64,000 nt of DNA from Octopus vulgaris (Eukaryota). The number at the start of each line of letters is the position of its first letter. The stretch's first letter is position 1. The notes under the pieces were generated by a model, which made no database searches, had not been told where the DNA came from, and worked only from the letters and a program-made list of their open reading frames with translations. Positions 31,910 to 35,875 of this stretch are shown in pieces. A program made the position numbers and the translations under genes. The stretch spans positions 47,616,001-47,680,000 of the forward strand of contig OX597820.1 in assembly GCA_951406725.2 (NCBI GenBank). The letters are read 5' to 3'.

Positions 31910-32490
31910 ATGGAGGTACATACAATTTATCATCTGCTCACTGAAAAACAACGTTACACTAGCAAGAAAACCAAATTACATTTTGTTTATTAAACGTCTA
32001 TTTACACAGCAATAGCAAATATATGTTTATTAAAGGTATTGATGTAAACATTTACAATTTAACTATATACAAGCCCACATACTGTTTCATCACTTTAGTT
32101 AATTAACACCTTCCCAGGTACTTCACGGCCAGTCTGATTTAGTACCATTCAGATTTCGAAATATCCTTTGTACCTAATATAGATCCAGGCCGAGCGAAAG
32201 ATGTATAGTCTTTGAAGATGACCGGGAGAAGTACGAATGAACGTGTGAAAGAAACGAGTGTCGCTGATAGCTATTACACTTAAATCAAATGTCTTGCAGC
32301 CGTTGATCAGGTGGCTGTCATTCTTCAGGGCGAAGAGCATTCCAGTACCTTTTTTACACTTGCACTATTGTCGTGATTGTTGTAAAGAAGCTAAATTAAG
32401 TGGTGTTTATTCCGTGTCTTCTTTGCCTTTCTGTTATTGTTACCTTTTCTTTGGGTTTTCCGAACGGGACTTTAGGCATTTGAAGTTTAT

Positions 32491-32564
32491 ATGAAATCTT
32501 TCATATCTTCTGGAGAATCTTATGTTACAACATAACATTCTCCAGAAGATATGAAAGATTTCAT
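32491..32564. repeat. Near-perfect palindrome, 36-bp arms, 2-nt spacer AC
   Basis: ATGAAATCTTTCATATCTTCTGGAGAATCTTATGTT-AC-AACATAACATTCTCCAGAAGATATGAAAGATTTCAT, with 1 mismatch. Confidence 0.95.
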
Positions 32565-32581
32565 GGCCGCGATAAACCCTA

Positions 32582-32756
32582 ATGCCTATCTCACTCTATC
32601 TCCCAAAATCCTATTCCGCCAATCTCCAGCTATCTCCGACTATCTCCGGCTATCTCCGGCTATCTCCGGCAATCTCCGGCAATCTCCGGCAATCTCCGGC
32701 AATCTCCGGTAATCTCCGGCAATCTCCGGAAATCTCCGGCAATCTCCGGCAATCTC
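32582..32756. repeat. 10-bp satellite array (AATCTCCGGC)n
   Basis: Seen directly; opposite orientation to 34005-34800. Confidence 0.95.
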
Positions 32757-32757
32757 A

Positions 32758-32817
32758 TGATAACCACATGAACAGTCCACCATCATGTATGATGGTGGAC
32801 TGTTCATGTGGTTATCA
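32758..32817. repeat. Perfect palindrome, 29-bp arms, 2-nt spacer GT
   Basis: TGATAACCACATGAACAGTCCACCATCAT-GT-ATGATGGTGGACTGTTCATGTGGTTATCA. Confidence 0.95.
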
Positions 32818-33412
32818 ACAATACTTTCTCATTTGAGGTTTTACAGAATAGGTTGTTTATCGCCTTATGAAGCATCTCACTATTTTACTTCTCTCTTAAC
32901 GTTGTGTGTAGTCTTATCGACTTCACGTTCAACTTTCAGATAACTGTGATGTGTTACCGTAAGTAAACAGTCGATCGGTGGTTGGGCGGAGTTTTCATCT
33001 TCTTGTCCGTAGACTATCTCCCCTTCCTTCCTTTTTCTGTACTTTCTGTTCCATACTCAGATTTCCATTTGTCATAAAGCTTTAGCCTTTTCTCAACATC
33101 GCTTTCAGACGATGCTTTGAAATCATTGCTTGCAGCTTCTGATCGATTATGTTCCATAGGAGAGGAGAGTCTTCTGTTTCTCATTGCCTCACATCCATGT
33201 CTATTGATACAGGCGAAGATTAGGATGAAGCAACTTTGTTTTCAATCTGAAAATCATATGAGTGGTGAACAGTAATGTTACTGCAGCAGTGGCACTAACG
33301 GTCATGCTTCACGCTTTGAACTTCATGAGTCTGCTAATCGGAGGAGGCCATTAGGCGATTTCGTCGATCCCGTTACTCAACTAGAACTTATTTTATCGAC
33401 CCCCAAATGGAT

Positions 33413-33543
33413 GAGATCACCATGTCTCGCACAAATGGTTGTGATGCATCTGCCTAGTGTACCCTTATCAGACCGATAGTCATGATGGGCTTCGAATATT
33501 TTACCCCAGTGACAATTTGATGGCACGCACTGTTCTCACACTC

Positions 33544-34004: not shown

Positions 34005-34800
34005 CCCGGAGGTTGCCGGAGTTTGCCGGAGATTGCCGGAGTTTGCCGGATATAGCCGGAGTTTGCCGGAGCTTGCCGGAGCTTGCCGGAGATAGCCGGA
34101 GACTGACGGAGATTGCCGGAGTTTGCTGGAGATTGTCGGAGTTTGCCGGAGTTTGCCGGAGATTACCGGAGATTGCCGGAGATAACCGGAGATTGCCGGA
34201 GATAGTCGGAGATTGCCGGAGATAGCCGGAGACTGACGGAGATTGCCGAAGTTTGCCGGAGCTTGCCGGAGTTTGCCGGAGATAGCCGGAGTGTGCCGGA
34301 GTTTGCTGGAGTTTGCCGGAGATTGCCGGAGATTACCGGAGATTACCGGAGATTGCCGGAGATAACCGGAGATTGCCGGAGATTGCCGGAGATAGCCGGA
34401 GACTGACGGAGATTGCCGGAGATAGCCGGAGATAGACGGATATAGCTGGATATAGCCAGAGATAGCTGGGGATTGGCGGAATAGCATTTTGGAAGATAGA
34501 GTGAGATAGGGGGAGATAGAGTGAGATAGGCGGAGATAGAGTGAGATTGGCGATGTTTGTCGGAGATTATCGGAGTTTGCCGGAGTTTGCAGGAGATTAC
34601 CGGAGATTGCCGGAGATAGCCGGGGATAGCCGGAGATTGCTGGAGATTGCCGGAGATAGGTGGAATACCATTTTGGGAGATTTCCCAATAATGCTGGGTG
34701 TTAAAACACCAGAGAGAGAGGGTGAGAGTAAGATTGGCGGAAATTGGCGTAGATGGCCGGAAATTTACGGAGATAGGTGGAGATTGGCGGAGATACGCGG
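34005..34800. repeat. 10-bp satellite array (GATTGCCGGA / GTTTGCCGGA / GATAGCCGGA)n
   Basis: Seen directly; variant units recur in higher-order blocks. Confidence 0.95.
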
Positions 34801-34802
34801 AG

Positions 34803-35875
34803 ATAAAATAAAATAAAATAAAAAAAATATAAAATGAAATAAGATAAAATAAAGTAAAAAATAAAACAAAATAAAATAAAAAATAAACTAAAAAAATAAA
34901 AATAAAATAAAATAAAACAAAACAAAATAGAATAAAGTAAAATAAAATGAAAAATAAAATGAAAAATCAAATAAATATTTTATGTTATTTTATTTTATTT
35001 GTTTATTTTTATTCTATTTTATCTTATTTTATTTTTTTTAACAAAAAAATAAATAAATCAATAAATAAATAAAATCAAATGAAATGAAAATAAAACAATT
35101 GAAAAATAAAAAATGAAATAATATAAAATAAAATAATATAAAATAAAATAAAAATAATAAAAATAAAATAAAATATAATAAAATAAACATAAAATAAAAT
35201 AAAATCACATAAAATGAAAATTAAAAAAGTGAAATAAAATAGAATAAAAAAAATAAGATAAGTTAAAATAAAATTTAAAAAAACAAAATAAAATAAAAAA
35301 ATAAAATAAAATAGAATAAAATAAAAAATAAAATAAAATAAAAAAATAAAAATAAAATAAAAAATATAAAAATAAATAATGAAAAAAAAAAGTAAAGTAA
35401 TGTATATAAGGTAAGGTATGGTAATAAAATAAAAATAAAATAGAATAAAATATAATAAAGTAAAATAAAAAAATAAGATAAAATAAAAAATAAGATTTAA
35501 AAAATAACATAAAATAAGTAAAATAGAATAAAATAAAAAATAATGCTAAATAATAAAATAAAATAAAATATAAAATAAAATAAAATAGAATAAAATAGAA
35601 TAATATAAAAGATAAAATGAAAAATAAATATTTTATTTTATTTTATTTTTTAAATTTCTTTTAATTTAATTTAATTTAATTTATTAAAATTGTTTTTATT
35701 TTACTATATCTTTAATTTTTTAATTTTTTAAAATTTTTATTTAAAAATATAAAATAAAATAAATTTAAAAAAAGATTTAAAAAAAAAAAAAAAATTTTTT
35801 TTTCCTATTTTATTTTATCTTATTATATTATTTTATTTTTTATTAATAAATAAAATAAAAGTTCTTTTACTTTTT
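34803..35875. repeat. Degenerate (AAAAT)n array with strand switches
   Basis: Almost pure A/T; orientation flips near 34977, 35040 and 35630. Confidence 0.9.

Follow-up and report, generated by a model that had tools for sequence, protein, structure and literature searches.

We describe a 260-base insert (positions 32529-32788) that consists only of inverted copies of its own two flanks and a piece of a neighbouring repeat. It is probably a one-off germline repair scar that goes back to one double-strand break, both ends of which folded back and were bridged by a templated filler. The window, i.e., the whole stretch of 64,000 nucleotides that was analyzed, comprises positions 47616001-47680000 in a 2.8-Gb assembly (contig label C7).

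According to the original prediction, each flank is followed by its own inverted copy, and a satellite lies between the two copies. Both palindromes were found as described in a palindrome scan of the window, and contigs support this anatomy. The left palindrome (32491-32564) has arms of 36 bp with one mismatch and the spacer AC, and the right palindrome (32758-32817) has perfect arms of 29 bp and the spacer GT. By chance, the longest perfect arm would be expected to be 8-12 bp long (20 first-order Markov simulations, 64 kb each). The outer left arm, X (32473-32526, plus strand), is the original left flank, as judged from the palindrome scan, the contig runs and its single copy. It is followed by the left loop AC (32527-32528, plus strand) and by the inner left arm, X' (32529-32588, minus strand), a reverse-complement copy of an older version of the flank. 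The predicted arm length of 36 bp was confirmed by the palindrome scan, but the contig letters showed that the inner arm really extends over about 60 bp, to 32588. Because of this extension, the filler comprises 172 bp (32585-32756, plus strand) and not the roughly 190 bp of satellite that had been predicted. It starts with the 20-mer subunit of the satellite, the 10-mer array itself occupies 32615-32756, and CCTA, the last four letters of the inner left arm, is common to arm and filler. Next comes a single A (32757, plus strand), which, by its sequence, fits neither the donor register nor the right arm. The inner right arm, Y' (32758-32786, minus strand), is a 29-bp reverse-complement copy of the right flank. 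The right loop GT (32787-32788, plus strand; palindrome scan) is the reverse complement of the left loop, and the outer right arm, Y (32789-32817, plus strand; palindrome scan, single copy and contig runs), is the original right flank. In a DNA search of the own genome, in which very common words were skipped, both flanks were single-copy at the junction.

Seven letters are missing behind 32490 in the outer left arm of the window. All six contig runs contain them as the reverse complement of 32565-32571, so the window has lost these letters from its outer arm, either by a haplotype deletion or by a consensus error in the hairpin. The telomere-like letters at 32572-32581 were considered as a telomere addition, which was rejected, as they belong to the inner left arm. 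On the right side, an A was found at 32761 in X4, X9, X10 and, in part, X2, and an A at 32808 in X10, while the right palindrome of the window is perfect; correction between the two arms is a possible explanation for these lineage differences. None of seven translations of the flanks matched Pfam, none of 17 Rfam matches to structured RNAs (miRNA precursors etc.) reached the gathering score, and a metagenome scan with the right arm yielded no matches. Further downstream, a very high-copy short repeat (33374-33500) with a summed contig depth in the millions is probably a SINE and is unrelated to the scar.

The filled form was present in all six contig runs that were compared (X1, X2, X4, X9, X10 and X11). 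These runs carry four organism labels and come from five studies, and X1 is possibly the source of the assembly. They belong to eight runs that were chosen out of 24 listed; the other two, X14 and X15, consist of raw reads, of which about 3 in 100 per run were sampled without a read at the locus, and carry no weight either way. Single contigs of X1, X4, X9 and X10 span the filler end, the inner right arm and the tip and continue into the flank. A contig of X2 covers the right arms from 32762 onwards. In X11 the right arms lack cover, but a contig runs through the inner left arm and into the filler. The left-flank contigs ended at 32507 in five runs (X1, X2, X4, X10, X11), which would be the point at which a 31-letter word graph merges the outer and inner arms. 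Among the contigs listed for the six runs, none crossed the insert from end to end, and none crossed the left tip in its filled state. The flanks diverged by about 2-4% between haplotypes (for X4 and the window, 11 differences in 565 letters and 24 in 718), and the runs showed lineage-specific changes. An assembly or library fold-back artefact could be suspected because the window differs from all six runs by the seven letters of the outer left arm, and because the support consists of contigs rather than long reads. The spanning contigs and the lineage-specific changes speak against it and make this reading extremely improbable. As six runs with flanks diverged by about 2-3% from the window contain the filled form, the insert is unlikely to be an artefact, and the event predates the split of these haplotypes.

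In addition to the filled form, X9 contains one contig (depth 17.5) that joins 32528 directly to 32789 and thereby skips 260 letters. This contig is the only empty homologue in the six runs; it has 78 letters on the shorter side of the joint, and one letter fits either side. It is marked "between: not known", and extra letters at the joint are possible. As given, its center reads T-AC-A, with the left loop retained. The original prediction had placed the two flanks next to one another in an empty site, which is what this contig shows, with AC in the center instead of the expected GT. The own genome, searched with very common words skipped, contained no paralogous empty site. In comparison with the one empty contig of X9, no direct target duplication was found. 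X9 rows of equal depth carry own alleles at 32465, 32481-32490 and 32836. Taken as a whole, the changes at 32481-32490 agree with the inner arm past 32577 if a 10-letter gap is allowed, at a place where the outer arm of the window differs. This agreement indicates that the empty haplotype split off before the change in the outer arm, and that the inner arm retains the flank in an older state. The empty form is therefore likely to be the ancestral state, although it could also have arisen early on through a deletion that removed exactly the DNA between the two tips. A further X9 contig (32256-32427) has seven differences and a four-letter gap in 168 letters and lacks the alleles of X2, X4, X10 and X11 at 32308, 32337 and 32348; its depth suggests that it is part of the empty haplotype.

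The window contains a further array of the 10-mer satellite in inverted orientation (34006-34804), which was absent from the original prediction. This neighbour array, about 1.6 kb downstream, is the likely template of the filler, to judge from the following comparisons. Among 35 targets it had the best score for the filler (259, with 238 for the next). An ungapped alignment with its segment 34339-34510 (minus strand) contained 17 mismatches in 172 letters, compared with 26 for the next best of 34 targets, and the subunit junction of the filler occurred in one of the 34 targets, the neighbour array. Over the last 92 letters of the filler, the neighbour array ties with an array at another locus (L063), with six mismatches each, so the donor signal comes from the first 80 letters, in which it has nine mismatches versus 15. 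The filler starts with the four letters shared with the inner left arm, in the donor register, while the right joint shares none and has the one extra A. The donor is only likely because the divergence between filler and neighbour array (10%) exceeds the 2-4% found between haplotype flanks; the array is CpG-rich and prone to slipping, which may account for the difference. Each of the inserted pieces, three in number, is the reverse complement of plus-strand DNA that lies within 2 kb.

The satellite is dispersed over many contigs. Directly behind the larger array in the window (minus strand) come 800 bp of degenerate (ATAAA)n and a short tract of inverted (TATTT)n (34803-35727). At two loci in the interior of chromosomes, the arrays pass into degenerate telomere-like repeats (L005, after about 2010; L022, after about 1860). 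Three loci (L043, L044, L057) have about 800 bp of flank in common beside their arrays, and on two different contigs a stretch of about 615 bp with 94% identity directly abuts the arrays (L061:6540-7158 and L070:4198-4811), possibly as a carrier element or a duplication. Arrays of both orientations lie side by side at seven loci (L050, L054, L057, L063, L067, L071, L164). Opposed arrays are often interleaved with a self-complementary satellite of A/T runs, which results in compound repeats that resemble fold-backs.

Recurrence was analyzed at other arrays of the satellite and in further genomic DNA. For the satellite, 40 of 88 candidates were scored, and one locus (L075) was left out of the flank test; the 35 loci comprised 33 of 9.9 kb and a further two of 3 kb, and the former had 150 array ends, counting those inside broken arrays. 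Short-loop palindromes derived from the flanks were found at none of the 35 loci. The matches near array ends were self-complementary AT-rich satellite, were internal to arrays, or, in one case (L054), were limited to one side, with an arm of 15 bp and a spacer of 16 nt. The second search covered 1,200,634 bases, made up of the window, 200 kb next to it, the satellite loci and a further 600 kb taken from twelve places elsewhere. It yielded 20 complex palindromes with spacers of up to 12 nt, including the two described here, and no second reciprocal pair. The sole other pair within 1.5 kb (L120) had spacers of 3 and 12 nt, and one of its members was multi-copy. Long palindromes were seen at six loci (L042:696-852, L072:1003-1140, L101:5859-5971, L106:3734-3886, L147:2982-3163, L013:2110-2335), most with further copies in the sample, and probably represent palindromic MITE families. 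The sampled 1.2 Mb are 0.04% of the genome, which is compatible with thousands of further sites. These data reject a satellite-specific mechanism, but they are a weak bound on a general one.

The palindromes and the X9 joint together allow the geometry of the event to be worked out. In our own working, the empty form is X-T-AC-A-Y, and the filled form is X-T-AC-A-X', followed by the filler and Y'-T-GT-A-Y. The two tips of the filled form equal the two strands of a break with a 2-nt (or 4-nt) 3' overhang, each end being joined to its own opposite strand. Both breakpoints derive from one site, one from either side of it, with extra letters between them being possible at the X9 joint. The templates are local for the arms, which derive from the flanks, and probably for the filler, which is closest to 34339-34510. 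Snap-back synthesis would predict a primer repeat at the fold and microhomology at the joint; one base pair was observed at each tip, with four shared letters at the left joint and none at the right joint, which speaks neither clearly for nor clearly against it. The options of the original prediction that invoked folded-back break ends and a filler, either by hairpin opening or by snap-back synthesis, fit both this anatomy and the empty homologue. A third option, a direct duplication with subsequent inversion by a recombinase, does not, since it predicts the same loop twice or no loop, in contrast to the observed AC and GT; this holds for a simple inversion, the geometry of which was worked out by us.

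We propose the following course of events. A staggered germline break at T-AC-A would have left a 2- or 4-nt 3' overhang, with no base lost. The left end would have folded back to generate X-T-AC-A-X', and the right end to generate Y'-T-GT-A-Y. The right end would have passed through a covalently closed hairpin or through the fusion of replicated sister ends, because a plain 3' extension would put AC and not GT on the plus strand; alternatively, the right GT could stem from copying through an intact site or from a loop that flipped later. This right end would then have been opened 29 bp from its tip. The 60-nt extension of the left end would have primed on the neighbouring array via the four shared letters and copied 172 nt, and the copied filler would have been connected to the right end with no microhomology. 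Host repair, i.e., synthesis of the polymerase-theta type and hairpin capping, would suffice. Several points weigh against the repair scar, among them that folding back on one T-A pair, with a loop of 2 nt, is energetically unfavourable, that complementary overhangs would normally simply religate, and that the empty site rests on one contig of one run. Moreover, a single locus does not allow a distinction between hairpin capping, the fusion of sister ends and template switching during replication.

The last of these was considered as an explanation that dispenses with a free break. The nascent plus strand would stall after T-AC, copy the parental plus strand backwards three times (left flank, neighbour array, and right flank through the site), and then return. 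One strand would template all three pieces, and copying back through the site would yield GT directly. However, four switches would be needed, three of them with at most one shared letter, as well as a return to the exact base of departure, and we regard this course as unlikely. Unlikely, too, is a recurring germline process, in which a nuclease cuts with 2-nt 3' overhangs, both ends seal as hairpins without base loss, and locally copied DNA bridges the unrolled hairpins. Homing endonucleases of the GIY-YIG type leave 2-nt 3' overhangs, as described in parts of PMC3664794, and a GIY-YIG domain is encoded by Penelope-like elements, for which passages of PMC8557442 give a variable distance between the two cuts. 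Nothing at the site points to a Penelope-like element. The mobility of the satellite itself, suggested in the original prediction as an integration mechanism with inverted copies of the target flanks, would be in agreement with its dispersal and with the sharp ends of the insert. Yet such flanks were lacking at all 35 other array loci, the filler resembles an internal piece of the neighbour array, and array flanks share AT-rich satellite and common repeats only, with no element ends. In addition, the palindromes are single-copy without shared terminal inverted repeats, and a direct duplication relative to the empty homologue is missing, which together render this mechanism very improbable.

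Two further explanations involve the excision of a transposon. Both tips read T-AC-A inwards and fit TA-CA / TG-TA, as would be left by a Tc1/mariner-type element with a TA duplication and the ends CA...TG, if both flanks with a 3' TA-CA snapped back after excision (the cleavage geometry is described in parts of PMC2170065). The empty homologue keeps CA, while a pre-insertion site would be TA alone and a plain footprint TA-CA-TA; this reading is thus viable only if the empty form is derived. The empty homologue resembles an outgroup haplotype instead, and no remnant of an element is present at the site, so that a Tc1/mariner origin is quite unlikely. In V(D)J recombination, P nucleotides are inverted flank copies left by hairpins that were opened off-center. 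Both tips also fit covalent hairpins, as a hAT, Transib or RAG-type transposase would form on the flanks; these would have to be opened far from the tip, giving very long P nucleotides, and to capture a filler. Passages of PMC1978519 on Ac/Ds describe footprints with hairpin formation, opening and microhomology joining, in which off-center opening of flank hairpins leaves inverted flank copies, and a hairpin route has been proposed there for long inverted repeats beside Ds. The footprints tabulated in that source alter a few bases only, whereas the arms here are 29-60 bp long and the loops have 2 nt and are reciprocal. There is also no transposon at the site and no target-site duplication relative to the empty homologue, and we judge a transposase of this type to be distinctly improbable. 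Because neither an element nor a target duplication is present, the locus is not shown to be a transposon footprint.

The component parts of the repair scar are known from cancer genomes, yeast and fly, but we did not find its compact inherited form in the literature. The search, which for the most part did not extend to subscription papers and older plant footprint work, yielded no report of a compact, inherited, paired fold-back. Reciprocal foldbacks from one break have been described for cancer genomes, under breakage-replication/fusion, in passages of PMC12807874. As in the scar, both ends of one break fold back, a staggered end results in two adjacent parallel breakpoints, and short junction insertions occur. 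In contrast, these passages concern somatic and disease genomes, and in the example given there the breakpoint distances are 429 and 2,059 bp, while the scar has a stagger of 2-4 nt and arms of 60 and 29 bp, healed locally, and was inherited across lineages. More generally, passages of the cited foldback papers describe breakpoints hundreds to thousands of bases apart that lead to large inverted duplications, compared with a healed insert of 260 bp in the present case. In yeast, as far as covered in parts of PMC10622511, foldback, fill-in and ligation generate a hairpin cap, which subsequently undergoes replication or cleavage; the process relies there on natural inverted repeats of 3-15 bp and results in large inverted duplications, while here one pair primes and both ends are involved. 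In Drosophila, snap-back SD-MMEJ with polymerase theta likewise leaves inverted copies of nearby DNA and microhomology at the joint, synthesis can proceed in several rounds at one end or at both, and adjacent nucleotides have been suggested to snap back on each other; the repeat motifs were scored within 20 bp of the junction (passages of PMC2943611). Plain snap-back at both 3' ends would, however, not yield the right GT loop of the scar. Extra nucleotides at LINE 5' junctions also stem from flanking DNA, but they concern one junction beside a retroelement, and the passages of PMC4245944 in question do not describe palindromes. Palindromes spanning junctions appear in parts of PMC3734650 with a geometry different from that of the scar.

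In summary, the locus is a single old scar in non-coding, single-copy DNA, with no function shown. It represents a clean natural record of inherited reciprocal fold-backs, for which an empty homologue, a stagger exact to the base and a likely template nearby are available. The scar indicates that such ends can heal in the germline without the large rearrangements known from tumours and yeast. It also provides a search pattern, i.e., two unique short-loop palindromes with reverse-complementary loops. If the recurring process were true, paired palindromes with reciprocal 2-nt loops would be a signature that can be searched for genome-wide.
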